From the NCBI RefSeq assembly GCF_030013205.1, contig NZ_CP122648.1: a DNA stretch of 64,000 nt; one strand, given 5' to 3'. Position 1 is the stretch's first letter. The number at the start of each line of letters is the position of its first letter. The notes under the pieces are model-generated. The model was not told the origin of the DNA, searched no databases, and saw only the letters and a program-made list of their open reading frames with translations. This document shows positions 36,832 to 48,965 of this stretch, piece by piece. Source of the DNA: Escherichia coli. GTDB taxonomy: Bacteria; Pseudomonadota; Gammaproteobacteria; Enterobacterales; Enterobacteriaceae. The position numbers and the translations under genes are program-made.

Positions 36832-37049
36832 AAACTCTCCACTTTGGGGATCTGTAATATCAGTCGCATATCTTTCCTGCCATACAATATAACTGACAAG
36901 CGATATTTTGTTAGTGATCCCATGATTTCGTAAAAAGTGTAAATGAAAGGATGCCCTAAAAGCATCCTTAGCGAGCAGAGAGTCAGCGGAAATAGCTGAT
37001 TTAAGAATCATCCTGGGCTGAAGATAACATGCAAGCCTAAAGGATGGAG

Positions 37050-37874
37050 TTATCGCATTATGCCCATGAAGCCATGTACGCCCATATACACACCAACTAA
37101 GCCAATCAACAGACTGGAAAAATAGGGGGCGCGTTTAGCGAGAGTGTTAAATCCGCTCCAGCGTTTTGCGACCTGCTGAACGCTGATTGCTGCGCCAACG
37201 CCTACGGTGACAAGCGTTAACGCCAGGCCAATGCTGAAACTGACGACCAGTGTTGCGCCCAGTGTCAGGGCTTTCAACTGAATGCATATCAACAGCACGG
37301 TAATTGCTGCCGGGCAGGGGATAAGGCCACCGGTTAAGCCAAATAGCAAAATTTGCCAGTTGGTGACCTCTCTACCATCAAAGCGTCGTTTAATGTCATT
37401 GGCATGGGCTCGTGCATGGGCATCCTGATACTCGCCATGTTCGTGATGGTGATGATGTCCATGGTCGTGGTGATCTTCGTGATCGTGGTGATGATGCTCA
37501 TGATCATGCTCGTGCATATTCTCCAGCCAGTTGCGTTCGCCGCGCCAGGTACGCCAGAACATCCAGAACGCGGTGCCAATAATGATCACTGCGGAAATCA
37601 ACTGGAGCCACGGTTCTGCTGATTGAGCAGTAAAGCGCTTGCTGATCACCATCCCGCCAAAGGCAATCAACCAGACCACTGCGGTATGCGAAATGGTTGC
37701 TGCCAGTCCGAGCATCACCGCCTGTTTAATGGTGCCTTTGATGGCGATGATAAACGCCGCCATCATCGTTTTTGAGTGCCCTGGTTCCAGGCCATGAAGC
37801 GCACCAAGTAAGATGGCGCTGGGGATGAAGAACCAGGCGTTTCCTTGCTGAAGAAGAGTGGTAAATTCGGTCAT
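37050..37874 (-). CDS. rcnA: Nickel/cobalt efflux permease
   Basis: 274-aa membrane protein with a His/Asp/Glu-rich loop (HEHDHEHHHHDHEDHHDHGHHHHHEHGEY). Confidence 0.85.
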   Translation of the reverse strand: MTEFTTLLQQGNAWFFIPSAILLGALHGLEPGHSKTMMAAFIIAIKGTIKQAVMLGLAATISHTAVVWLIAFGGMVISKRFTAQSAEPWLQLISAVIIIGTAFWMFWRTWRGERNWLENMHEHDHEHHHHDHEDHHDHGHHHHHEHGEYQDAHARAHANDIKRRFDGREVTNWQILLFGLTGGLIPCPAAITVLLICIQLKALTLGATLVVSFSIGLALTLVTVGVGAAISVQQVAKRWSGFNTLAKRAPYFSSLLIGLVGVYMGVHGFMGIMR

Positions 37875-37911
37875 GATAATAATTCTTAGTATTAATTCGG
37901 CAATCTTATTC

Positions 37912-37946
37912 TACTCCCCCCCAGTACCTGATACTACCCCCCAGTA
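37912..37946. promoter_or_regulatory. RcnR operator pair (TACT-C6/7-N-AGTA) in rcnA-rcnR divergent region
   Basis: tactcccccccagta (37912-37926) and tactaccccccagta (37932-37946); matches published RcnR site architecture. Confidence 0.6.
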
Positions 37947-37994
37947 GATTAATAGTGCTATGATTTTTCATATTCTTGTTAACCAGGTGTTGCC

Positions 37995-38267
37995 ATGTCT
38001 CATACCATCCGTGATAAACAGAAACTGAAAGCGCGTGCCAGTAAGATTCAGGGCCAGGTCGTGGCGCTCAAGAAAATGCTCGACGAGCCGCACGAATGCG
38101 CTGCAGTTTTACAACAGATTGCTGCTATCCGTGGCGCGGTAAACGGTCTGATGCGGGAAGTGATTAAAGGTCATCTGACGGAACACATCGTTCACCAGGG
38201 GGATGAGCTAAAACGTGAAGAAGATCTGGATGTCGTTCTGAAGGTGCTGGATTCTTATATCAAATAA
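37995..38267 (+). CDS. rcnR: Ni/Co-responsive transcriptional repressor (CsoR/RcnR family)
   Basis: 90 aa, [48 protein letters not shown]. Confidence 0.85.
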
Positions 38268-38359
38268 TTTATTAACGCGATTGTAAAACTGCGGTTTTTA
38301 CTCGTTTACAACGCGTGCGCTGGACATTACCATCCTCCTCTGCGATTTATCATCGCAAT

Positions 38360-38437
38360 CAAACGACTCGGGGTGCCCTTCTGCGTGAAGGCTGAGAAAT
38401 ACCCGTATCACCTGATCTGGATAATGCCAGCGTAGGG
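38360..38437. repeat. attL: 78-bp copy of thiM TPP-riboswitch sequence (left junction of inserted element)
   Basis: Perfect 78-bp identity to 47250..47327; sequence to its left is native rcnR-thiM intergenic DNA, sequence to its right is element DNA. Confidence 0.75.
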
Positions 38438-38520
38438 GGCCAAAATAGTCTTGAAAATTATGTGGTTGTATCTCTTTTTGACCATAAATCATGCTGTTAA
38501 GGTACAAAAAGGGGTCGTTT

Positions 38521-39828
38521 ATGAGGTCAAGAACTCTCCCATACACATTTCAGCGAAACGGTAATTACTATCTACAAATCCGGCTTTCGGATGGTCGGAT
38601 ATACAAAAAATCACTTTTTACTGACAGTTATCGCGAAGCATCGGCGTTGATGATTGGCCTTACTCCGCACATTCCTTTCGTTAAATCACTCGCTACTCCG
38701 TTGCCGCAATTTAATAAGTTTGTTTCAAACTTGATCGCTTCGTCACGTAACGTAATGATTCCGTTGCCACTCCCTCAGCAATTGAACAATATTTCTAAAG
38801 AAGTTTTGCAGCTTCAACCACCAGCCAAACCGGAAAAGGTGCTAACACTTGCTGATGCGTGGGCTATGTACAAGGAGGAAAGAGGTCGAAATTGGACAAA
38901 ATCGATCTCAATGGCAAATGAGCGTTATATGGAGGTATTGCTTGTTGTCTTGGGAAAAGAAACAGACGTAACGGCAATCACCAAACAAGATATTAAGCGA
39001 GTAATGGAAACTGTCGAAAACTTACCAAAGCGTGTAGTGCAACCGTATAGGTCAATGACTATTCAGCAACTAATCGAATGTGATGATGTGCTGCCAGAGG
39101 ATTTAGTTGGTGCTGAGGCTGTACATAAGCACCTTAAAATCTACAAATCGTTATTCAAAACATTTCTGACTGAAAACAAAGATATTCTATCTAAGTCTCC
39201 GACTGATGGAATAGTAGCGGCACCATCCAAAGCTAGGTTTGGTGCATACAGTGCAGCAGAAATGAAAAAATTTGTAGGATGGGCACTAAAGCAGCCTGAT
39301 GGATGGCAGAAGTGGATCACTTTGTTGTTGGCGTACACAGGAGCCAGAAGAGGTGAGATTGCTAAACTGGAGAAGTCGCAGATCAAATTTGATGAAGATA
39401 GCCAGCGGCACTATCTTCTGATCGCGGAAAGAAGGCTGGGTAAAACTGAGAATGCTACAAGACAGGTAGTGATTCATCCCAAACTGATTGAGTGGGGGTT
39501 TCTGGATTTTGTTAACCGCCAATGGAAAGAGAAAATCTTTTCGGAAGTCTCAGGTCGAAATATGTCAAAGATAGGTAAAGTTCTTTCAGATGTTCGTGAT
39601 CAGCTTGATATTCCTTATCTTGATGATTATGGGCAGCGGCGCTTGGTGCATAGTTTCCGGCATACTATGATTTCTACTTGTTTAGCTGGTTGGGTGAGTA
39701 ATTTGGCGCATCTGCAACAGGTGGTAGGTCATGAGAAAAGCGGTTTAGGGATTACCAGACGCTATTTGCACTCTTTTCCTTTACGTTCAATTTGTTACGT
39801 GATTGATGGTTTGGACTGGTTAAATTGA
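38521..39828 (+). CDS. Tyrosine-type site-specific integrase
   Basis: ORF 38491..39828; RBS AAGGGG before ATG 38521; catalytic-region motifs ARRGEI, HSFRHT, and terminal RRYLHS tyrosine. Confidence 0.85.
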   Translation: MRSRTLPYTFQRNGNYYLQIRLSDGRIYKKSLFTDSYREASALMIGLTPHIPFVKSLATPLPQFNKFVSNLIASSRNVMIPLPLPQQLNNISKEVLQLQPPAKPEKVLTLADAWAMYKEERGRNWTKSISMANERYMEVLLVVLGKETDVTAITKQDIKRVMETVENLPKRVVQPYRSMTIQQLIECDDVLPEDLVGAEAVHKHLKIYKSLFKTFLTENKDILSKSPTDGIVAAPSKARFGAYSAAEMKKFVGWALKQPDGWQKWITLLLAYTGARRGEIAKLEKSQIKFDEDSQRHYLLIAERRLGKTENATRQVVIHPKLIEWGFLDFVNRQWKEKIFSEVSGRNMSKIGKVLSDVRDQLDIPYLDDYGQRRLVHSFRHTMISTCLAGWVSNLAHLQQVVGHEKSGLGITRRYLHSFPLRSICYVIDGLDWLN

Positions 39829-39869
39829 TGTGAGCCTCGTGAGAAAGGGAATAAATAGAGAAAATCAAG

Positions 39870-39897
39870 TTGTTACCTCATTGGCAGGGGATATAAT
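39870..39897 (+). promoter_or_regulatory. Candidate sigma70 promoter for the nuclease gene
   Basis: -35 TTGTTA (39870-39875), 16-bp spacer, perfect -10 TATAAT (39892-39897), about 30 nt upstream of the ATG. Confidence 0.4.
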
Positions 39898-39927
39898 GAC
39901 CATATTGTCATCTTGAGGAACAAAAGT

Positions 39928-41499
39928 ATGGTTGCTCGTTCTAACCTTGTAAATTTAGATGCACTGATTAAGCGTGCTGATTTAGGTTTAAAGATCCAAG
40001 ATAACTCTTCATTTGAAACGCTAAACAGTATTCCTGCAAGAGAATTGAAATCAGGAAGTGGAATTGCTGCGCTTCTGAGAAAACCAGATTTCCAGCGTGA
40101 AACAAATCATTGGGGGCCTGAGCAGGTTGTATCGCTTCTCGAATGCTACATCAATGGTGATTTGATACCTTCCGTTATTCTTTGGCGGTCTTCAACCCAT
40201 CTTTTTGTGATCGATGGTGGTCATCGTTTAAGTGCGTTACGTGCTTGGGTTGAAGATGATTATGGCGACGGTCATATATCCCATCAACTTTTTGGGCATG
40301 ATATTCCTCGTGAACAACGCCGCGCTGCAGATAGAACGAGAAAGCTTGTGAAGGAGAGGGTCGGTAGCTGGGAATATTATCAGAAGTTGCTTGCCGATGA
40401 TGCTTCATTGACCGAGGAACAGCAGAGAAGAATCAGCGTATTAACATCTCGTGGAATCTCAGTCCAATGGGTAGTGGGTGATGTAGATAAGGCAGAAACT
40501 TCATTTTTTAACATCAATATGAAGGGAACTCCTCTTGATGCTATCGAAGAGATGCTTCTAAAAAATCGCAAGAAAAGTATTCCGATAGCAACCCGAGCAA
40601 TTATTCGTGCCGGTAGAGGTCATCGCTATTGGTCGGGGTTTGATCAGAGCATTGCCCAGCAACTTGAAGATAAATCTGCAAAGCTGCATCGTTTGCTGTT
40701 CGAACCTGAAGTTGATCGCCCTATTAAAACTCTTGATCTTCCATTAGGCGGTTCTAGGGGGGTCAGGACAGCGATCCAAGTTTTGAAAGATTTCTTACTG
40801 ATCACTGATTGCAACCAGAATGGTGTTTTGAAAAAAATCGAAGCCTACCCTGATGATGCGTCGGGTGCTGATACGTTAAGAATCCTTTCCAAAGCCACAT
40901 CATTAAGCAATAGAATTACAGGCAATGGCGATGGTAGCTTGGGGCTTCATCCAGCGATTTATTTTTATGGTCCGACTGGAATCCACTCAACGCCAATGTT
41001 TCTAGGAACTGTGCTACTGGTGGCAAAACAACTCTCTAACAATAATGGTCAATTCTTTAAAGACTTCACAACAATCAGATCTAGGCTTGAGAGAATAATG
41101 ATCGAATTTAAGGACTTGATCGCAATGATAGTACAAAAACCAGGTAGTAATGTCCGAGTGGCTCGCTACTGTGATTTTTTAAATGCGGTGATCAAATCAC
41201 TCAAGCAGGGAGAGAATATTGATGAGAGTAAGCTTATCGAGCTGGCCGAATTGGAGGGGAGAATACTCTCTGGAGATTTTAAGAGAACATCAGCAAAAAT
41301 CAGCGATGAACAAAAAAGTAAGGTGTTCATTGACGTGGCTCTGCGCAACGCTTTGAAATGTCCGATTTGCCAAGGTTACCTTGATACTGAAAAGTCAGTT
41401 TCTTATGATCATATCGTACGTGTCCGTGAGGGAGGAGATGGTAATTCTGACAATGTACAGTTGACACACCCTTACTGTAACCAGTCAGTGAAGTGTTAA
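39928..41499 (+). CDS. DUF262/DGQHR (ParB-like) domain + C-terminal HNH endonuclease fusion; candidate defence nuclease
   Basis: N-terminus FQRETNHW ... FVIDGGHRLSALRAW (QR/DGQ(Q/H)R-like ParB-fold motifs); C-terminus CPICQGYLDTEKSVSYDHIVRVREGGDGNSDNVQLTHPYCNQ (HNH His-Me finger). 523 aa from ATG 39928. Confidence 0.7.
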   Translation: MVARSNLVNLDALIKRADLGLKIQDNSSFETLNSIPARELKSGSGIAALLRKPDFQRETNHWGPEQVVSLLECYINGDLIPSVILWRSSTHLFVIDGGHRLSALRAWVEDDYGDGHISHQLFGHDIPREQRRAADRTRKLVKERVGSWEYYQKLLADDASLTEEQQRRISVLTSRGISVQWVVGDVDKAETSFFNINMKGTPLDAIEEMLLKNRKKSIPIATRAIIRAGRGHRYWSGFDQSIAQQLEDKSAKLHRLLFEPEVDRPIKTLDLPLGGSRGVRTAIQVLKDFLLITDCNQNGVLKKIEAYPDDASGADTLRILSKATSLSNRITGNGDGSLGLHPAIYFYGPTGIHSTPMFLGTVLLVAKQLSNNNGQFFKDFTTIRSRLERIMIEFKDLIAMIVQKPGSNVRVARYCDFLNAVIKSLKQGENIDESKLIELAELEGRILSGDFKRTSAKISDEQKSKVFIDVALRNALKCPICQGYLDTEKSVSYDHIVRVREGGDGNSDNVQLTHPYCNQSVKC

Positions 41500-41887
41500 A
41501 ATCACGTTTCACTTTTCGTTGTCATTTGTATCGAACGTTTTTGAGAAAGGGCAGGATTGCGAGCGAGTTACCAGCGTAAACAGATAAATACTGTTTTCGT
41601 AAGCCCACTGTCGCCGCTTTCCGCTCTGCAATTTTTGCTTGTCGGGGGGCTAATTGTGGCTTTGCTTGCCATAACATTAAAAGTCAGTAATATACTGAAA
41701 ATTAATACAATACTTTTCATATATCCCATTGAATATTCAGTTCATTGCCAAATAGCAAGCGGAGCACTCTCTCTTTAACGTTGTAGTAACTTAGTTGAAC
41801 AATTTTATAATATAATTTGTCTAAGTTGGTTGATGTATCAAAGCCTTTTTCTGAAGAATGAATTGGCGTGATTACTCACGCCAGATT

Positions 41888-42235
41888 TTAAATTTCAGAA
41901 CATAGGCTAAGCGTATAGACAGCAGTTTGCCCATCATTGTTAGTCGGTCTCATAACGAAAACAGGCTGACTCCCATTATCAATGTATGTGACTGCAACCC
42001 CTCCATCAGGTGTGGCATACATTTTTGCGATGCTTTTTTGACCTATAAAATCAAGTCTCCAAGTCTTACCACCAAGATGTATTGTCATTTTTTTATCTTG
42101 TATATCAAAAGTTGAATCTACAGAAACTTTCTGACTTCCCGAGTCAATATGACCTTCCTGTATTGCTTTACAGGAAAAGGTTGTGGCGTGGCCCATCACT
42201 GGAATTAACAAAGCGGCAAATACTAGTTTTTTCAT
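41888..42235 (-). CDS. Small secreted protein of unknown function (115 aa)
   Basis: RBS GGGAGA; MKKLVFAALLIPVMGHATTFSC signal peptide; no recognisable family. Confidence 0.5.
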   Translation of the reverse strand: MKKLVFAALLIPVMGHATTFSCKAIQEGHIDSGSQKVSVDSTFDIQDKKMTIHLGGKTWRLDFIGQKSIAKMYATPDGGVAVTYIDNGSQPVFVMRPTNNDGQTAVYTLSLCSEI

Positions 42236-42345
42236 TTGTCTCCCTTGATGTGTCAAATGGATGGTGATGCTAATAATACATGATTGATTCAAAATGTCAC
42301 GATTAGTGCGTGGTTAATTGGTGCGTCAAATTGCATCTTTGTGCC

Positions 42346-42810
42346 ATGCGAAAGAATCTGAGATACCTTTTTGGACAACGAGTAAAAGAGTTCCGTATAG
42401 CTATTGGCTTAAGCCAAGAGGCCTTTGCAGATCGGTGTGGTTTTGCTCGTAGTTATATGAGTCGAATTGAGCGTGGTTGCTCTAATGCATCTCTTGATGC
42501 AATTGAGGTTCTGGCTGACGCTTTGCGTATTGAGCCTTGGCAGTTACTAGCTTCTGATTCAAGGAAAACTGATGATCAGGAGGTACTTGTTCCTTATGCT
42601 GCAGATGGGTCGTGTTTTCATCCAGGATTGGCAAGTACTCGCGATGGTTCGTTTAGAGTAGGGGAAAAATCAGCCCAGAAACGTTTCAGTTCGTTCAATG
42701 ACGCTCTCGAATACCTTCGTGGAATGGAAACCGCGAAGTGGCGTAGGCCTAATGCTAGTGGTAATTGGGGAATTGTATCTGCGGTTAAATGGGATCGACT
42801 GAATCAATAA
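42346..42810 (+). CDS. XRE-family HTH regulator with C-terminal extension
   Basis: LRYLFGQRVKEFRIAIGLSQEAFADRCGFARSYMSRIERG HTH; start could also be the GTG at 42310; divergent from secreted-protein gene. Confidence 0.65.
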   Translation: MRKNLRYLFGQRVKEFRIAIGLSQEAFADRCGFARSYMSRIERGCSNASLDAIEVLADALRIEPWQLLASDSRKTDDQEVLVPYAADGSCFHPGLASTRDGSFRVGEKSAQKRFSSFNDALEYLRGMETAKWRRPNASGNWGIVSAVKWDRLNQ

Positions 42811-42976
42811 GATATCAGTAATTTTCGGGCCACTCCACAAGGCAATAAGTGGCTTAGTGGTGATTATCGAAGGGGAATACAAGCGAGCACCTAGGCACCA
42901 TTGCAAGAACCGCTCAACGCTGAGATCAGCAAGCCCCGATTTCTGCCGACCGTCCCTGTCAAATATCAAGGAGGCA

Positions 42977-43516
42977 TTACGCCTCCTCTTCTTCCTTCTT
43001 AATTCGCTGTACCGTCGAAGGAGCAACATTAAAGATCTCGGCGGTTTTACGCACTGACACGCCATCAGAAAGGGCTTTCTTTATACCTTCTCGATCCACT
43101 GCCTTACCTTTACCACGCTTTCTAGGATTGACGGCTTGCGCTTCTCGTTTACGTTCTAACATCAGTTCACGTTCACACGTTGCCACTGCCGACAACATAG
43201 TAAGCATCATTTTTCCCATCGCGCTTGTAATGTCTGCAATGATCCCTTCTTTGTGAAAGCGAACAATTACACCACGATTATTAAGTTGTTCCACTAAGGC
43301 AAGAATGTCTAAGGTGTTACGCCCTAAACGATCAAGAGAGTGGACGTGTAAGGTGTCGCCTTCTCTCAGATAGGCTAAACACGCTTGTAAGCCTGGGCGG
43401 TTAGTGTCTTTACCAGACAGCTTATCTTCAAAGACTTTGTCGAGAGTTAGTCCTGCAAGCTGGCGATCAGTATTTTGATCTACAGTGCTCACACGCTTAT
43501 AGCCGATATTGCTCAT
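42977..43516 (-). CDS. Small serine recombinase (resolvase/invertase family)
   Basis: MSNIGYKRVSTVDQNTDRQ with catalytic Ser; C-terminal HTH; RBS AAGGGGA. Confidence 0.8.
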   Translation of the reverse strand: MSNIGYKRVSTVDQNTDRQLAGLTLDKVFEDKLSGKDTNRPGLQACLAYLREGDTLHVHSLDRLGRNTLDILALVEQLNNRGVIVRFHKEGIIADITSAMGKMMLTMLSAVATCERELMLERKREAQAVNPRKRGKGKAVDREGIKKALSDGVSVRKTAEIFNVAPSTVQRIKKEEEEA

Positions 43517-43565
43517 AAAATCCCCTTGATGTATCGATTTGGCACCACTCCAATGCAAATGAGTG

Positions 43566-43653
43566 TGTTGTATTCATTTGGTCTGTTTCAAGCCTTATGG
43601 ATACGGAATATTACACGATTTAGCTGTATTCATTTGGTATGCCTAATGGATAC
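43566..43653. promoter_or_regulatory. Two res-like palindromic sites upstream of the serine recombinase
   Basis: tgtattcatttggtctgtttcaagccttatggatacgg and tgtattcatttggtatgcctaatggatacgc; each has imperfect inverted half-sites GTATTCAT / ATGGATAC. Confidence 0.4.
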
Positions 43654-43785
43654 GCAGGGGGATAGATTAAATGGTGTTCTGTTTATACAGGTTTATTTGT
43701 TAGATCAACAAGTTGGCATTTCTAAACAGATGTTTGAACGTTGCCAAATGCCTTGACAACACAAGAAAATGGCTTGCTATGAACG

Positions 43786-44100
43786 CATTACACGAAATAA
43801 GGCTATAAAAACAAAATAAATTTTAAAATTTGCACAAAAACGAGAAAACTCGTTCGACAAATAATAGATTGGTTTTTAATCGACAATTTCTGACAATTTC
43901 TGATGGTGCTCTGTAAACCGCATTACACAAGGCTTTGCGAAAGTGATGTAAAAGTGAAGAAAGTTAACATTGCACTTTGAAGCCATTTTTCATTGGATTT
44001 TTTAGTAGGGAATTACACAGGGAATAGAGAGCATTATTCTATGATTTACACAGGGAATATAGGGGATTATGGCACACACATAGAAAGGCATTACACAGAG
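43786..44100. repeat. Iteron-like direct repeats, family A (TTACACAGGGAAT-type, 5 copies)
   Basis: cattacac(g/a) at 43786 and 43921, aattacacagggaat at 44011, tttacacagggaat at 44046, cattacacagag at 44089. Confidence 0.5.
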
Positions 44101-44163
44101 TGAGTGCTATGTGATGATTGGTAGTAACGGTAGGTCACTGTGAGCTACCCCCCACAGAATTCT

Positions 44164-44340
44164 GTTACCCCTATCAAGTCTAACAGGGGTTTATAAAGAA
44201 TAATAAACCGATGATACCCCTATCAATATTGATACCCCTATTAGCTTTGATATGACTACCCCTATCAAAACTGATACCCGATAAGAATAAGTTAATAAGA
44301 ATAATTAAATAATATTCTTTATATCTATATATATGATCTT
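44164..44340. repeat. Iteron cluster, family B (GATACCCCTATCAA x5) plus AT-rich unwinding-like tract: candidate oriV
   Basis: tacccctat at 44166, 44215, 44233, 44257 and tacccgat at 44275 (spacing 18-49 bp), followed by about 60 bp of nearly pure A/T (44281-44340). Confidence 0.55.
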
Positions 44341-45503
44341 TTTGCCTTCCGGCGTTAGCTTCACTCTCTGGCAAGCAGCCTTACTCCGCTATCTTTGGGC
44401 TTCGTGGCTGGCCCGTTCCGCTCACACCGAAAGCAAAGCGTTACTCTTCTTCGTGTAACTATCGTTGGCGGTAACGCCACACGAAGAAATACTATTGCGC
44501 TGTGCGCAGTAAGAGTAATCACCTAACCAATCACCTGATTGCTTACGTGTTAACTCTCTCTAACTCTTAATTACCCTCCTACATTTAATAACTCTATTAT
44601 TCTCTGTAGTTGTGTAATTACTCGAAGAGAGAGCGGCTAAAGCTCAATTACACTCTGCTTTCCTCGTGTAATTTCACTAAGCCTCAATACAATTTCACTT
44701 CCTACATTCTGTAGTCGTGTAATAGTTTTCGGTGGGGAAAAGCCAGAGGCGACACCGAAAGAAAATTCTGATCTTATTAATCTTATCTATCTTAGTTAAT
44801 CTTCTTACTTACTTTATCTACTTTATTATTAATAATAGCTTTATAAGCTCTCTGTGTAGCTCTCTGACGCAAGAAACAGCATTCAGGAAGGGAATCACCT
44901 TAGAAAAGTGTTCTTTGCGTCATAATGTGTTTTATGAAGGATTCAGAGGTGTTTCATAACACAAGGTATAGAGGATATTTTAGTTAATTAAAAATAAGGG
45001 GGCTAAATGCTTCTCTAACAGCATTAAGCAGGGTAGAGAATGGAAATGCATTGCCTACGTATATATAAACTCACTACAAGGCTTTACAGAGCGTTTTATA
45101 AAGTAACTAATCTAAGAACTCTCTGTTTTATATCTATCATCATCTTTCCATCATCTAACAAATACAAAATAAGCCCCTTAAATAAGCCTCTGGCGAGCTA
45201 AACAGCCATTACATAAGGGAATGTATTTCTTTTATCAAAACTTCGTTAGAACGCGTTTTAGAGCGTTTTATACAATAAGGAAGAATAGGACCGTCCGCAA
45301 GAGCACGAATTGCTAAGAAAGAATGTAAACGCATGAAAAATATCAGATTTTTTATGAAAATATATTGACAAATGTTTCTTTATATGTAATAATAGGTATT
45401 AGAGAGACAGAAAAACATTCTTCTCTAAATAATCAAAATCAATGCACTTTGAAGCCGTCAGGCTTGCAAGGTGTTTTTCTTTTAACTGAATAAGGAGTTT
45501 TTT

Positions 45504-45692
45504 ATGAAATGGTTTACACCGGAACACGTCGTAGAGGCATTTAAAAAAGGTGAGCTAACACGACATCAAGTAGTAATGAATCGTAATATGGCAAGGAGTC
45601 GAGGTTATCCAGAGCGTGAAAAATGTTTCGATGCAGCACTAAAAATTATTGATAAATTAAGAAAAAATGAAAAAGGATCTGAAACAGAGTAA
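45504..45692 (+). CDS. Hypothetical small protein (62 aa)
   Basis: Strong RBS AAGGAG 7 nt upstream of ATG; basic small protein, no family recognised. Confidence 0.45.
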   Translation: MKWFTPEHVVEAFKKGELTRHQVVMNRNMARSRGYPEREKCFDAALKIIDKLRKNEKGSETE

Positions 45693-45711
45693 AGAAGAGA
45701 AGGAGAAAACT

Positions 45712-45882
45712 ATGAGCGAAACTACAGAAAAGAAAAGACAACCACGCACTTGCTTTCATATTCCTGATGAAGTATTTCAGGTGTTGTTTAAAGAAGCCAG
45801 AAGTAAACGTATCACTGTTACAGATTACATTCTTGATATGTTGAAAAGAGAGGCTGAAACACTCTCAAATAAAAGCAAGTGA
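45712..45882 (+). CDS. Ribbon-helix-helix (CopG/Arc-like) DNA-binding protein
   Basis: RBS AGGAG; PRTCFHIPDEVFQVLFKEARSKRITVTDYILDMLKRE fits beta-alpha-alpha RHH pattern. Confidence 0.5.
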   Translation: MSETTEKKRQPRTCFHIPDEVFQVLFKEARSKRITVTDYILDMLKREAETLSNKSK

Positions 45883-45936
45883 TTTTTATCACCATAGTAG
45901 CGCCGTAGAGCGTGATTACATCAAGGAGCTTTTTTA

Positions 45937-46599
45937 ATGATTAAACATACAAAACCTTTCTTAGGAATAGATTATGACTTACTAGCAATCACTTCCCTAG
46001 TGATTAACGGCAAAACAAAAGAAGTAAAACTACATCATAAGATCATTTATTCTTATTTGTTAAGTTTATCTGGCACATATCAAAAGGTAACACCATCTTT
46101 GAAAGGTATTGGTGAGCGGTTAGGAGTAGGTACAGATCAGACGGTACGCCGTCATATCAAAGATCTTGTTTCTTTTGGATGGTTGAAGATTGAGGAAAGG
46201 GCAGGTAGCACAAATGCTTATATTGTCCTTCCTTATGAACAAGAAGCCCAGACACAACAAGAAGCTACCGTTAAAGCTGTTCAGGAACAGCTTCCCCCTA
46301 CGGAAGATAATAAAGAGTTTTCTTTTGATGTTCTTGATGATTGGGATGCGCCTTTACCTTGGGAAATGGAAGAAACGCCATCTGATGAAAAGGTAGCTAA
46401 TGATAATGAGGAGGATGTGTTAGAGAATTTTGCCTCTCTTATCATCCAGGAGAAACACACAAGAACAGGAGGGGCATCATTTATAGAATTTGCAACATCG
46501 TTAGCCTGTAAGCACAGGATAAAGCTACCAAATGGTATTGAGGCATATTTTGCTAAGAAACATCCCAAAGTATATGAAGACTTTGATATTCCATTTTAA
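45937..46599 (+). CDS. Winged-helix protein, candidate replication initiator
   Basis: RBS AAGGAG; wHTH-like SLKGIGERLGVGTDQTVRRHIKDLVSFGWLKIEE; acidic C-terminal half; sits next to iteron region. Confidence 0.5.
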   Translation: MIKHTKPFLGIDYDLLAITSLVINGKTKEVKLHHKIIYSYLLSLSGTYQKVTPSLKGIGERLGVGTDQTVRRHIKDLVSFGWLKIEERAGSTNAYIVLPYEQEAQTQQEATVKAVQEQLPPTEDNKEFSFDVLDDWDAPLPWEMEETPSDEKVANDNEEDVLENFASLIIQEKHTRTGGASFIEFATSLACKHRIKLPNGIEAYFAKKHPKVYEDFDIPF

Positions 46600-46794
46600 T
46601 AAGGAGGGTTATGATTCAATATTTAGTAAAAAATAAAGTAGAATTCATCTATTCCACTCTCTAAAAATCTATCTGTGTAATATAAAATGAAAACATTATG
46701 GTATTAGCTATGTATTGGTTATTGTTCTTTCTGGCCTTAGAAACATATGCAAGTAAGTCTGGAAAACGAAAGTAATATATTGATGATTTGTTTG

Positions 46795-47052
46795 TTATAA
46801 CTTCGTGGTGTCAAGTCCAGCAGTTTTGAGTCGCTCGGTAAGATTTCTCATTTTGCTGAACTCTGTACCAAAGCTGGCTTTAAGTCCTACACCTTCGCAA
46901 AACTCTTTTGCCGTGACGTTTTTCAGATGGTCAACATATTTGGTCATCTGGAGGTGCATTTCCATCGTTTGGCTATTTCGTGATGCGCTGCTAATGGCTT
47001 GCTTAATGTTCTCGTAGATCTGGGTTCTGTCATTGTTTATCCCACCTATCAA
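46795..47052 (-). CDS. Hypothetical small protein (85 aa) at element right end
   Basis: Minus-strand ORF adjacent to attR; function unknown (could be an excision/regulatory factor). Confidence 0.35.
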   Translation of the reverse strand: MIGGINNDRTQIYENIKQAISSASRNSQTMEMHLQMTKYVDHLKNVTAKEFCEGVGLKASFGTEFSKMRNLTERLKTAGLDTTKL

Positions 47053-47245
47053 ATTTAGAAAAATAATATTAATTAGCTAATTAATATAATCAATGGTTTT
47101 CACCATCTGAATGATAGCCGTTAATTGTTTCTTTTTCATTCCTTCTATGGGGTACAAAATGGGGTACACAGAGAAGAAGCAATTAATGGAGGCGAGCTTG
47201 CATCTGCAAGCCACTTCCCCTAAGCTGGCACAAAATATAGAGATT

Positions 47246-47379
47246 CAACCAAACGACTCGGGGTGCCCTTCTGCGTGAAGGCTGAGAAATACCCGTATCA
47301 CCTGATCTGGATAATGCCAGCGTAGGGAAGTCACGGACCACCAGGTCATTGCTTCTTCACGTTATGGCAGGAGCAAACT
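47246..47379 (+). promoter_or_regulatory. TPP (thi-box) riboswitch controlling thiMD
   Basis: Contains the canonical thiM aptamer sequence CAAACGACTCGGGGTGCCCTTCTGCGTGAAGGCTGAGAAATACCCGTATCACCTGATCTGGATAATGCCAGCGTAGGGAAGTC and expression platform up to the SD (ggcaggag). Confidence 0.85.
47250..47327. repeat. attR: 78-bp direct repeat (native riboswitch copy adjoining thiM)
   Basis: Identical to 38360..38437; downstream sequence continues as native thiM leader. Confidence 0.75.
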
Positions 47380-48168
47380 ATGCAAGTCGACCTGCTGAGT
47401 TCCGCGCAATCTGCGCACGCGTTACACCTTTTTCACCAACATTCCCCTCTTGTGCATTGCATGACCAATGATGTGGTGCAAACTTTTACTGCCAATACCT
47501 TACTGGCGCTCGGTGCATCGCCAGCGATGGTTATCGAAACCGAAGAAGCCAGTCAGTTTGCGGCTATCGCCAGTGCGTTGCTGATTAACGTTGGCACACT
47601 GACGCAGCCACGCGCACAGGCGATGCGTGCCGCCGTTGAACAGGCAAAACGCTCTCAAACACCCTGGACGCTTGATCCAGTAGCGGTTGGTGCACTCGAC
47701 TATCGCCGCCGTTTTTGTCTGGAACTTCTGTCTCATAAGCCAACCGCCATACGTGGTAATGCTTCGGAAATCATGGCATTAGCTGGCATTGCTAATGGCG
47801 GACGGGGAGTGGATACCACTGACGCCGCAGCTAATGCGATACCCGCTGCACAAACACTGGCACGGGAAACTGGCGCAATCGTCGTGGTCACAGGCGAGGT
47901 GGATTATGTTACCGATGGCCATTGCACCGTTGGCATTCACGGTGGCGATCCGCTAATGACCAAAGTGGTAGGAACTGGCTGTGCATTATCGGCGGTTGTC
48001 GCTGCCTGTTGTGCGCTACCAGGCGATATGCTGGAAAATGTCGCATCTGCCTGTCACTGGATGAAACAAGCCGGAGAACGCGCAGTCGCCAGTAGCGAGG
48101 GGCCAGGCAGTTTTGTTCCACATTTCCTTGATGCGCTCTGGCAATTGACGCAGGAGGTGCAAGCGTGA
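47380..48168 (+). CDS. thiM: Hydroxyethylthiazole kinase
   Basis: 262 aa; immediately downstream of TPP riboswitch. Confidence 0.9.
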
Positions 48169-48965
48169 AACGAATTAACGCTCTGACGATTGCCGGTACT
48201 GATCCGAGTGGTGGTGCGGGGATTCAGGCCGATCTTAAAACCTTCTCGGCACTTGGCGCTTATGGTTGCTCAGTTATTACTGCACTGGTGGCGCAAAATA
48301 CCCGTGGTGTACAGTCGGTGTATCGCATTGAGCCTGATTTTGTCGCCGCCCAGCTCGATTCGGTGTTCAGCGATGTGCGAATCGACACCACTAAAATCGG
48401 TATGTTGGCGGAAACCGATATTGTTGAAGCGGTGGCAGAACGGTTGCAACGTTATCAGATCCAAAACGTGGTACTCGACACCGTTATGCTGGCAAAAAGC
48501 GGCGACCCGCTGCTTTCACCTTCGGCGGTTGCTACGCTGCGCAGTCGATTATTGCCACAGGTTTCATTAATAACGCCAAACTTGCCCGAAGCTGCTGCCT
48601 TGCTCGACGCGCCACACGCGCGCACCGAACAGGAAATGCTGGAACAAGGGCGATCGCTGTTGGCGATGGGCTGTGGCGCAGTGCTAATGAAAGGTGGTCA
48701 TCTGGATGATGAGCAAAGCCCTGACTGGCTGTTTACTCGTGAGGGGGAACAACGATTTACTGCACCGCGCATTATGACCCAAAACACCCACGGCACTGGT
48801 TGTACGCTCTCTGCGGCGTTGGCTGCACTACGCCCGCGCCATACAAACTGGGCTGACACCGTACAGGAGGCAAAAAGCTGGCTTTCATCGGCGTTAGCCC
48901 AGGCCGACACGCTGGAAGTTGGTCACGGTATTGGTCCGGTTCACCACTTCCACGCCTGGTGGTGA
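48165..48965 (+). CDS. thiD: Hydroxymethylpyrimidine/phosphomethylpyrimidine kinase
   Basis: 266 aa; overlaps thiM stop (operon). Confidence 0.9.

Follow-up and report, generated by a model that had tools for sequence, protein, structure and literature searches.

What lies between rcnR and thiM in those strains of Escherichia coli where the two genes stand far apart, and how does thiM keep an intact riboswitch there? In the 64,000-nt stretch of E. coli assembly GCF_030013205.1 (contig NZ_CP122648.1) analysed here, which we call the window and whose positions are used throughout unless a locus is named, the rcnR-riboswitch-thiM interval measures 10,101 bp. In K-12 W3110 the same interval is unbroken at 1,211 bp, and its sequence is continuous across both borders of the extra DNA. 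Here we report that the insert is a mobile, site-specific, target-restoring integrative island of the tyrosine-integrase type, with its attachment (att) site in the thiamine pyrophosphate (TPP) riboswitch aptamer of thiM. That it integrates, and that it targets this aptamer, we regard as close to certain. To the fuller reading, in which the island restores its target, carries a replicon of its own and is in conflict with a group of lytic phages, we assign a probability of about 0.8.

A repeat search of positions 37000-48500 returned a single long direct-repeat family, consisting of two 82-nt copies at 38356-38437 and 47246-47327 with a start-to-start spacing of 8,890 bp. The copies differ at one base (T38359 versus C47249), leaving a perfect stretch of 78 nt (38360-38437 and 47250-47327). 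An earlier note on this DNA had described a perfect 78-bp repeat bracketing about 8.89 kb between rcnR and thiM. The search recovered the same coordinates, and the 78 nt hold for the perfect stretch, whereas the homology block is really 82 nt in most carriers. At Rfam gathering thresholds the window contains four RNAs, two of which are TPP riboswitch aptamers (RF00059, gathering score 54.3) lying on the repeats; both copies exceed that score, in agreement with the note's view that the att site lies inside a structured regulatory RNA. In the residue-level Rfam alignment the right copy (47249-47345) scores 71.2 bits, with P1 intact and all helices present, and a comparison of 100 nt shows no difference between the right-hand riboswitch and that of K-12 W3110. 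For the left copy (38359-38454) the score is 61.9 bits; its sequence agrees with the right copy up to GCGUAGGG, after which foreign DNA follows; island DNA replaces the 3' strand of P1 and leaves two non-standard P1 pairs.

An empty rcnR-riboswitch-thiM site, with a single copy of the repeat, is found in K-12 and in most of 5,426 complete E. coli genomes, while at least 80% of the island is present in 37 of them. An integrase homologue occurs in 221 of the 5,426, and every one of the matches listed at 95% identity or above has the riboswitch under it. Islands that are 99.5-100% identical were found in strains of pigs, humans, chickens, dogs and a monkey as well as in ATCC 8739, which implies recent mobility. 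The 64-kb window itself matches the chromosome of E. coli ETEC1748, a pig strain from Belgium, at 100% identity, and there PGAP gives the order rcnR, riboswitch, integrase, GmrSD-domain protein, hypothetical protein, helix-turn-helix (HTH) protein, recombinase, two hypothetical proteins, HTH protein, HTH-like protein, riboswitch, thiM and thiD. The G+C content is 39.8% in the island and 46-52% in the flanks. Three outcomes would have spoken against an insertion according to the earlier note, namely presence of the 8.9 kb in all E. coli, lack of any empty-site allele, and repeat borders lying away from the synteny break. None of them was found, and the synteny break and the repeat borders coincide exactly.

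The gene next to the left repeat (38521-39828, plus strand) encodes a 435-aa tyrosine integrase (phrog_1 integrase, E = 1.6e-26; PF00589 recorded on homologues) and starts 84 nt from the attL core, with a start codon supported by cross-genus alignment and by the PGAP annotation. The attL core (38356-38437, plus strand) is the chromosomal 5' 82 nt of the aptamer, ends in GCGTAGGG and lacks the P1 3' strand and the expression platform. It is followed by the left (P') arm (38438-38520, plus strand), which has a candidate arm-type integrase site, AGGTACAAA, at 38500-38508; in an alignment of nine genera this arm has a mean column identity of 91%, and GAGGTACAAAAAGGG is invariant. The right (P) arm (47100-47245, plus strand), recognised from the cross-genus alignment, contains two arm-type repeats, GGGTACAAA at 47150-47158 and GGGTACACA at 47162-47170. 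An inverted repeat, GCTTGCATCTGCAAGC, follows at 47196-47211, and a conserved block, CACTTCCCCTAAGCTGGCACAAAATATAGAGATTCAA (47212-47248), reaches up to the attR core and a little way into it. At the attR core (47246-47327, plus strand) the 5' 82 nt of the aptamer come from the island and adjoin the P1 3' strand of the chromosome. The rebuilt, intact TPP aptamer (47249-47345, plus strand; the 71.2-bit copy) precedes thiM (47380-48168) and thiD (48165-48965). Across genera the arms keep two to three GGGGTACA-type repeats, the inverted repeat and an invariant block of about 38 bp upstream of the core, together with two GGTACA repeats downstream of it, the second of which is an arm-type site in the left arm of the relatives that overlaps the int ATG. 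The GGGTACA-type repeats are conserved in both arms, and their presence on both sides of the core is the layout expected of arm-binding integrases. Target repeats at both ends, a single-copy empty site in related genomes, the integrase family match and the rebuilt attR all agree with the earlier description of an integrase-bearing element whose att site lies in the thiM TPP aptamer.

The note had also proposed a search for relatives of the integrase and their att sites, and this revealed that aptamer targeting is a property of a whole integrase clade and not an oddity of E. coli. A scan with one genome per species gave 41 loci encoding integrase relatives. All Enterobacterales loci with sequence upstream of int have an aptamer copy, detected by BLAST with the E. 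coli aptamer, that ends at aptamer position 80-82 and about 85 nt upstream of the gene, and their integrases are 64-84% identical in amino acid sequence to that of the window. At least 20 Enterobacterales genera have a member of the clade at this aptamer position; among them are Lelliottia, Erwinia, Enterobacter, Citrobacter, Silvania, Atlantibacter, Cedecea, Rahnella, Pluralibacter, Klebsiella, Winslowiella, Pantoea, Mangrovibacter, Pseudenterobacter, Franconibacter and Kosakonia. At eleven loci a second aptamer copy, continuing into the native P1 3' strand, was found 2.6-11.4 kb downstream. The junctions fall into two subclasses, GCGTAGGG/GGCC and GCGTAG/TCCTGGC, in both of which the identity of attL and attR ends at the point marked by the slash.

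Three of these loci (L007, L009 and L025) narrow the place of recombination. Their two aptamer copies differ in the P2/P3 hairpin (CCCTTC...GAAGG versus CCCCATC...GATGGG), and attL and attR are identical only from GCTGAGA to GCGTAGGG, so that the crossover is confined to about 46 bp in the 3' part of the aptamer. This stretch contains the dyad-symmetric P4/P5 hairpin CTGGATAATGCCAG, around which we infer the exact crossover point to lie. Integrases that target tRNA genes use the anticodon stem-loop, and the P4/P5 hairpin may be its analogue. The hairpin differences also show the islands to bring in a part of the aptamer from an earlier host and to produce chimeric riboswitches. The attR of L007, L009 and L025 joins a foreign P2/P3 hairpin to the P1 3' strand and expression platform of the host, which could alter thiM regulation.

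The site is occupied in tandem or sequentially in several genera (L009, L013, L026, L027). In E. coli TB06052 (L058:10914-22426) a different island with AAA ATPase cargo is inserted in the aptamer copy of an older O157-type remnant. Insertion into the aptamer copy of an earlier island leaves attP-like junctions in the chromosome. The most distant relatives of the integrase, at about 30% identity, come from marine Gammaproteobacteria and, at all 13 of the 13 loci where rnpB was detected, follow a full-length copy of this RNase P RNA gene at a distance of about 100 nt to 1 kb. Three of the islands at this site were examined; they are 3.4-8.4 kb long and bounded by 117-175-bp repeats of the rnpB 3' end. 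The rnpB-site loci are numbered L030-L044, with L031 (9574-9914 and 13200-13340), L033 and L037 as examples.

How the target is restored can be read from this arrangement. A lambda-type integrase would recombine an attP carrying the first 82 nt of the thiM leader (the GCGTAGGG end) with the chromosomal thiM riboswitch, the strands being exchanged within the 46-bp stretch around the P4/P5 hairpin. A riboswitch acts only in cis with its gene, and for this reason the island has to supply the 5' part of the target, with the intact copy at the end distal to int. The attR consists of the presumed island promoter region and the island-borne 5' part of the aptamer, followed by the chromosomal P1 3' strand, expression platform and thiMD, and constitutes an intact switch. 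At attL, int lies 84 nt behind a P1-less pseudo-aptamer, and the predicted thiM promoter of the host stands ahead of both. The rnpB-site relatives show the classical layout, in which the island gives the 3' part and the intact gene lies beside int, and the thiM islands are its mirror image.

Such an insertion would also exchange promoters, the host thiM promoter passing to int, with transcription of thiMD either starting in the right-arm block or reading through from the rep operon. A consensus scan places the predicted native thiM promoter at 38305-38333 (plus strand; TTTACA-17-TACCAT). In K-12 this sequence is continuous with the riboswitch, and it presumably functions there as the promoter. 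After insertion it faces the truncated aptamer and int, not thiM. The right-arm block CACTTCCCCTAAGCTGGCACAAAATATAGAGATTCAA, with TATAGA at 47236-47241, is a candidate replacement promoter, and the stretch from rep to attR has no predicted terminator. O157:H7 Sakai gives the strongest indication that the right arm suffices for thiMD, as in this strain attL and the native thiM promoter are deleted and only the island right arm precedes the intact riboswitch-thiMD. The product of thiD is required for thiamine synthesis, and we know of no thiamine requirement of O157:H7. Since no consensus promoter was called in the right arm, the promoter swap is a step that we infer.

Downstream of its cargo genes the island carries what is most probably a functional replicon. 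A non-coding region of about 2 kb (43560-45500) contains no open reading frame (ORF) above 93 aa and none annotated by PGAP, and it is 82-93% conserved across island variants. It includes a putative origin of replication (44166-44335, plus strand) made up of four type-A iterons (TACCCCTAT-) at 44166, 44215, 44233 and 44257, where 0.14 would be expected by chance, and an A+T-rich stretch after them. The Rep initiator (45937-46599, plus strand; 220 aa) matches phrog_270/428/391 replication initiation and Pfam HTH_36 (1.9e-7). The protein resembles lambda-O-like and DnaD-like initiators, and its N-terminal winged-helix (HTH_36) domain is here called type A. The best sigma-70-like promoter of the region (45365-45393, plus strand; TTGACA-17-AATAAT, TG-extended, 11/12 positions) precedes the rep operon, which begins with two small ORFs upstream of rep (45504-45882, plus strand) of 62 aa (45504-45692) and 56 aa (45712-45882). 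These travel with the replicon in L002 and L050-L053 and have no significant family match in PHROGs, NCBIfam or PADLOC; the 56-aa ORF is ribbon-helix-helix-like by eye.

The iterons and the initiator appear to be matched. Iteron type co-varies with the type of the Rep N-terminal DNA-binding domain, with four types of each across the window, L004, L005, L050 and L052. Type A (TACCCCTATCAA) occurs in the window, L002 and L006, type B in L005, type C as six tandem copies of GGTAGGTCACTGTGAACTAGGGG in L004, and type D (CCCCCACAGAATTCTGTTA) in L050; the C-terminal half of Rep is similar in types A, C and D. Judged by sequence, the island thus has the initiator, at least three direct repeats, A+T-rich region and matched specificity of an iteron-type theta replicon. 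The origins are mosaic, as the window and L052 hold vestigial iterons of other types (in the window a single type-C and a single type-D iteron at 44130-44165) and L052:1740-2330 has arrays of four types, which suggests repeated replicon swapping. Once excised, the island would replicate from the iteron origin by means of its own Rep, and multimers would be resolved by its serine recombinase. This is a small protein of 179 aa of the resolvase/invertase type (42977-43516, minus strand; phrog_125 DNA invertase, 5.4e-56) that probably acts as a multimer resolvase, and no convincing flanking inverted repeats defining an invertible segment were found for it.

Other parts of the non-coding region are conserved or structured as well. 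Beside the iterons lies a G+C-rich segment (44340-44560) with a hairpin TTCTTCGTGT...ACACGAAGAA and fold z-scores of -3.5 (plus strand) and -4.2 (minus strand) against shuffled controls. Parts of it are kept in Erwinia and Enterobacter islands, and the segment may serve in single-strand initiation or encode an RNA. Motifs of the ATTACAC(A/G) type occur six times on the plus strand at 43610-44097 and three times on the minus strand at 44611-44723. No Rfam match was obtained in the region at E <= 1. Within these 2 kb the iteron block alone is explained.

The replicon block, from serine recombinase to Rep, is also present in a tRNA-Gly island of strain MS20658 and in four IMG/VR contigs. In the MS20658 island (L002:7341-19262, about 12 kb) the non-coding region, small ORFs and type-A Rep are those of the thiM island at about 91% nucleotide identity. 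It has its own integrase as well as genes of capsid-like, tape-measure-like and tail-fibre/endolysin-like type, and could be a sibling of the thiM island that encodes a capsid. Among the 72,556 plasmids of PLSDB the replicon gave three weak or partial records, one of which, at 4.9 Mb, is evidently a chromosome.

A search of phage collections gave two matches to one and the same group, the virulent myophages of about 146-151 kb in the Stephanstirmvirinae (phi92, muut, inny, Mt1B1_P17). The first lies in the rep region, where positions 45877-46305 are 94.7% identical to phage muut. The muut gene involved, gp154 (L049:2558-3556), encodes 332 aa, of which residues 1-115 are 100% identical to the window Rep; the 345 nt contain five differences, all synonymous (98.6% nucleotide identity). 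A second winged-helix domain follows, with 258 of 261 nt (98.9%) matching the Rep gene of an L005-type thiM island. The C-terminus matches Pfam MUG113 (PF13455, 4.6e-4) and phrog_681 endonuclease (2e-18), T5orf172 only at 0.11, and in tblastn the nuclease domain matches genes annotated as GIY-YIG or homing endonucleases. The same plan recurs in Mt1B1_P17 (L055:514-1500), with a type-D-like first domain that is 82% identical to the L050/L051 Rep, a type B domain and the nuclease, and in inny gp184 (L056:157-1260), with another first domain, type B and the nuclease. The tandem domains of the three phages match different island Rep types at 82-100% amino acid identity. Neither the iterons nor the second matching segment is present in the 55 kb of muut examined.

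That second match is a 73-bp segment (42901-42973), similar to positions 285-357 of phi92 (L048) and with a 23-nt identical core CCCCGATTTCTGCCGACCGTCCC. In phi92 it extends across the inner boundary of the direct terminal repeat, annotated as 343 bp long, and in the window it sits between the 3' ends of the XRE regulator and serine recombinase genes. About 40 BLAST records contain it, nearly all of them phi92-like and four labelled Campylobacter phages. It is kept in L004, L005 and L006 and travels with the XRE/serine-recombinase module. One possibility is that it mimics a packaging or recognition site.

On these sequences, conflict between the islands and Stephanstirmvirinae phages is likely. 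The phi92/phAPEC8-like phages would target the replicon with nucleases composed of island Rep DNA-binding domains and a putative GIY-YIG-type domain. Since the phage nucleases carry island Rep domains, the island would be expected to replicate during infection by phi92-like phages and to interfere with it, in the manner of the PLE and PICMI islands; transfer in phage particles would be a further step of the same kind. The earlier note had guessed at an integrative plasmid or satellite-like element, a guess made stronger by the copies of Rep DNA-binding domains in lytic phages; the island is probably a satellite-like replicon directed against phages. True satellite behaviour, with helper-dependent packaging, is possible but rather less than probable. 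In the boldest form of the proposal, which we put forward tentatively and with somewhat more doubt than confidence, the islands would be the counterpart of the Vibrio PLEs in E. coli and other Enterobacterales, as satellites or satellite-like defence replicons. They would excise, over-replicate, block phi92/phAPEC8-like phages and perhaps be packaged through the terminal-repeat-like segment, the phages would answer with multi-headed Odn-like nucleases that gather island Rep DNA-binding domains, and promoters would be swapped symmetrically at the att site, int passing to the host thiM promoter and thiMD to an island promoter.

The cargo listed in the earlier note is all present, namely the tyrosine integrase, a nuclease with GmrSD_N and HNH domains, an XRE regulator, a serine recombinase and an iteron origin with Rep. 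The nuclease gene (39928-41499, plus strand) occupies a variable cargo slot and encodes a 523-aa candidate GmrSD-like type IV (modification-dependent) restriction endonuclease (Pfam GmrSD_N 1.1e-11, HNH 2.9e-4). In PCN033 (L004) the slot holds a type IV methyl-directed restriction enzyme (PADLOC mREase_IV), in STEC1588 and TUM12355 (L005/L006) it holds an unknown 316-aa protein, and in Franconibacter a gene 97% identical to the GmrSD-like gene adjoins the integrase. The family shares one backbone with an interchangeable slot of restriction-type genes.

Three smaller genes complete the backbone. The first (41888-42235, minus strand) encodes a conserved protein of 115 aa (phrog_35183, 4.3e-27) that is kept in L004-L006, L009, L010 and L025 and whose N-terminus, MKKLVFAALLIPVMG..., looks like a signal peptide by eye in the translation. 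The XRE-family HTH regulator (42346-42810, plus strand; 154 aa) matches phrog_8, phrog_4 and phrog_3 and the PADLOC model 'Control_protein' (5e-17), and would be a candidate for the master repressor of the island. Beside attR, an 81-aa HTH_73 protein (46795-47040, minus strand; Pfam PF24718 7e-27, phrog_30666) is homologous to ECD_02033, the protein encoded upstream of mcrX in E. coli B; its C-terminus matches the ECD_02033 primer sequence in PMC5487053, and it may be a regulator or a directionality factor. The two remaining Rfam matches in the window, OrzO-P type I antitoxin RNA (19080-19153, 88.8 bits) and CyaR small RNA (63178-63263, 100.7 bits), are ordinary for E. coli and unrelated to the island.

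Several results weigh against the picture of a mobile island in conflict with phages. The earlier note had suggested looking for an excised circular form with a reconstituted attP, and none turned up; exact and degenerate patterns of the attP junction were absent from IMG/VR and JGI metagenome contigs, and a synthetic 461-nt attP query detected no free circle among the plasmid records of complete E. coli genomes. No excisionase/AlpA, primase, terminase or capsid-remodelling gene was found among the 9 ORFs with PHROGs, NCBIfam and PADLOC. The 523-aa slot gene is named GmrSD by PGAP, while PADLOC gave a weak NsnA match and no GmrSD. The similarity to the phage terminal repeat is short, the capsid protein of the MS20658 island is 21-26% identical to assorted myophage capsids and contains no pointer to phi92-like helpers, and the consensus scan called no sigma-70 promoter in the right arm. 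The phage chimeras, finally, could be homing endonucleases with domains borrowed for some other purpose. The sole full-length attP-like junction in complete E. coli genomes is the chromosomal tandem of TB06052. An 8,980-bp Logan contig with the integrase was considered as a circle and rejected, its size being that expected of a repeat-bounded assembly.

The most probable of the alternatives is an integrative plasmid or mobilizable element that is independent of phages and moves by conjugative mobilisation or generalised transduction, with Rep, iterons and resolvase maintaining the circle and the phage nucleases being homing endonucleases with Rep domains by chance. Its integrase, Rep, iteron origin and small serine recombinase do form a plasmid-like set, and SGI1-type mobilizable islands have a similar gene set. 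No packaging or capsid genes stand among the ORFs, and putative homing endonucleases from T5-like and other phages have a similar nuclease domain. However, no relaxase or recognised oriT was found, and the replicon is nearly absent from plasmids, as the PLSDB count indicates. Tandem Rep-type domains in three phages are hard to explain without selection to recognise iterons, and the Rep-domain and iteron types are shuffled among islands like the PLE replicons under Odn pressure (PMC8263062). We consider this alternative unlikely.

A decayed, immobile remnant of a small prophage or capsid-encoding element, marking an old insertion, would account for the lack of structural genes, given that the tRNA-Gly sister with the same replicon has capsid- and tail-like genes. 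Clear remnants of the family are indeed fixed in O157:H7/O55:H7 and in E. coli B (PMC5487053). In the window, however, int, both att repeats and the arm sites are intact. Near-identical copies occur in unrelated strains while most genomes are empty at the site, the compact architecture recurs with a swapped cargo gene, and TB06052 has a fresh insertion beside an old remnant. Decay is on this evidence quite improbable.

A further proposal concerns the function of the left junction, where the aptamer copy at attL/attP might make int expression respond to TPP. The host thiM promoter and an 82-nt aptamer do stand 84 nt upstream of int, and the attL copy is still above the Rfam gathering score. Regulation of this kind is nevertheless very unlikely, as island DNA has taken the place of the P1 3' strand and of the entire expression platform. 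By eye, the left arm has no conserved alternative P1 partner across genera, and the attL copies of L045 and L046 carry disruptive changes, though the two islands concerned may no longer be active. The same junctions recur in other genera and in dozens of complete genomes, each assembled independently, which refutes both an assembly artefact and a local duplication with no link to a mobile element.

The target-restoring island with its own replicon has been sighted before in other guises. The earlier note did not recognise it as a described element; this stands for the integrase and the riboswitch, and does not stand for the locus, which is listed in two papers. The McrX island of E. coli B was reported as 'adjacent to thiM', with no mention of integrase or riboswitch (PMC5487053), and for strain 789 a supplementary table to a survey of E. 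coli defence islands gives an 'rcnR-thiM' island (7,956 bp, RM_type_IV, mobile-element type 'None'), again mentioning neither integrase nor riboswitch (PMC10121019). The McrX island is a remnant of the thiM-island family. Integrase-less right-end remnants are fixed in O157:H7/O55:H7 between rcnR and thiM (Sakai L057, ECs_2908-2910), in E. coli B next to thiM (ECD_02033/02034), with the classical restriction enzyme McrX on board, and in E. coli C. A full-text literature search, which left most subscription journals uncovered, found no report of a riboswitch attB, an rnpB attB, or satellites or Odn-like nucleases of phi92-like phages, and the TIGER paper with its supplements does not mention thiM, riboswitch or rnpB.

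The riboswitch is, as far as we found, a new class of attachment site, in which the logic of restoration is inverted when the target must stay on its gene. The attB of about 80 nt is present in nearly every E. coli checked and conserved in the other Enterobacterales loci examined, and the integrase could therefore serve as a tool for DNA insertion. Carriers and remnant lineages such as O157:H7 have thiMD behind island DNA, islands from other hosts produce hybrid aptamers, and the regulation of thiamine salvage may differ by strain. If the islands block phi92/phAPEC8-like phages, this bears on the use of such phages against E. coli. The nucleases with Rep domains point to a conflict like that of PLE and ICP1, and they do so in the bacterial host that is easiest to work with.

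Among known systems, the tRNA/tmRNA islands (Islander/TIGER; PMC4383910, PMC7192596) are closest in plan, with the integrase gene at one att site, a duplicated piece of the target, rebuilding of that target, a structured RNA site with dyad symmetry, and tandem occupancy. They restore the 3' part of a stand-alone RNA gene, whereas the thiM island, whose target is the RF00059 TPP riboswitch and so falls outside the Islander definition, restores the 5' part (82 nt and presumably the promoter) of an aptamer in an mRNA leader. In the thiM island, moreover, the intact copy is distal to int and the displaced fragment lies beside it. Islands at the dusA 5' end (PMC4482086) and SpyCI at that of mutL (PMC3430984) likewise hit the 5' end of a transcription unit and supply upstream sequence or control the downstream gene. 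Their targets are protein-coding, unlike the non-coding aptamer that the thiM island duplicates while leaving the coding sequence untouched. A non-tRNA structured RNA as attB is shared with phiEf11-type phages in ffs, the 4.5S RNA gene (PMC12540744), and with the rnpB relatives, which belong to the same broad integrase family as the thiM island at about 30% identity. Both ffs and rnpB are free-standing RNA genes restored at the 3' end, unlike the thiM riboswitch. What is new is the riboswitch as a target class together with the inverted restoration; the island itself is of the classical tyrosine-integrase kind.

Satellites that use a fixed slot or a small genome offer a second comparison. P4-like satellites and P2 prophages (PMC9122126) share with the thiM islands a fixed slot with interchangeable anti-phage genes, here GmrSD-like, mREase_IV or unknown, and McrX in E. 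coli B. No match to psu, delta, sid or alpha was found in the thiM island, and the integrase target is different. The PICMI islands (PMC10803314) are also small (6-9 kb class), lack capsid-remodelling genes, are linked to a virulent phage and carry a defence gene; they are packaged as a concatemer in full-size heads of that phage (PMC10803314). They lie beside fis with int, alpA and a primase gene, whereas the thiM island lies at the thiM leader with neither alpA nor primase. The AlpA, primase, terminase and capsid families of PICIs and capsid-forming PICIs have no member among its 9 ORFs.

The nearest likeness on the side of the phages is that of PLE and the ICP1 nuclease Odn (PMC8263062, PMC7145576). 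Odn consists of a T5orf172 nuclease and a PLE RepA-like domain (42% identity); it cleaves the origin of PLE at the iterons and selects for replicon swapping (PMC8263062). Common to both pairs are an island with its own initiator, an iteron origin and exchangeable replicon modules, and a phage protein with an initiator-like DNA-binding domain; in muut gp154 the N-terminal domain is homologous to the DNA-binding domain of the island initiator, and the C-terminal domain is a candidate for the T5orf172/GIY-YIG type. PLEs use a large serine recombinase, Vibrio repeats and a RepA_N initiator, in contrast to the tyrosine integrase, riboswitch and HTH_36/O-like initiator of the thiM island, whose serine recombinase is only 179 aa long. 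Each nuclease of the E. coli phages has two domains in tandem that are near-identical to island Reps, a more extreme case than the 42% identity of Odn to RepA. Excision, interference and transduction have been demonstrated for PLE; for the thiM island they are proposals from sequence. Since the markers of PICI, P4-like, PLE and PICMI elements are all lacking, the thiM island, if it is a satellite, would represent a new family, and its pairing with phi92-like phages looks like a second natural example of an arms race of the PLE/Odn type.

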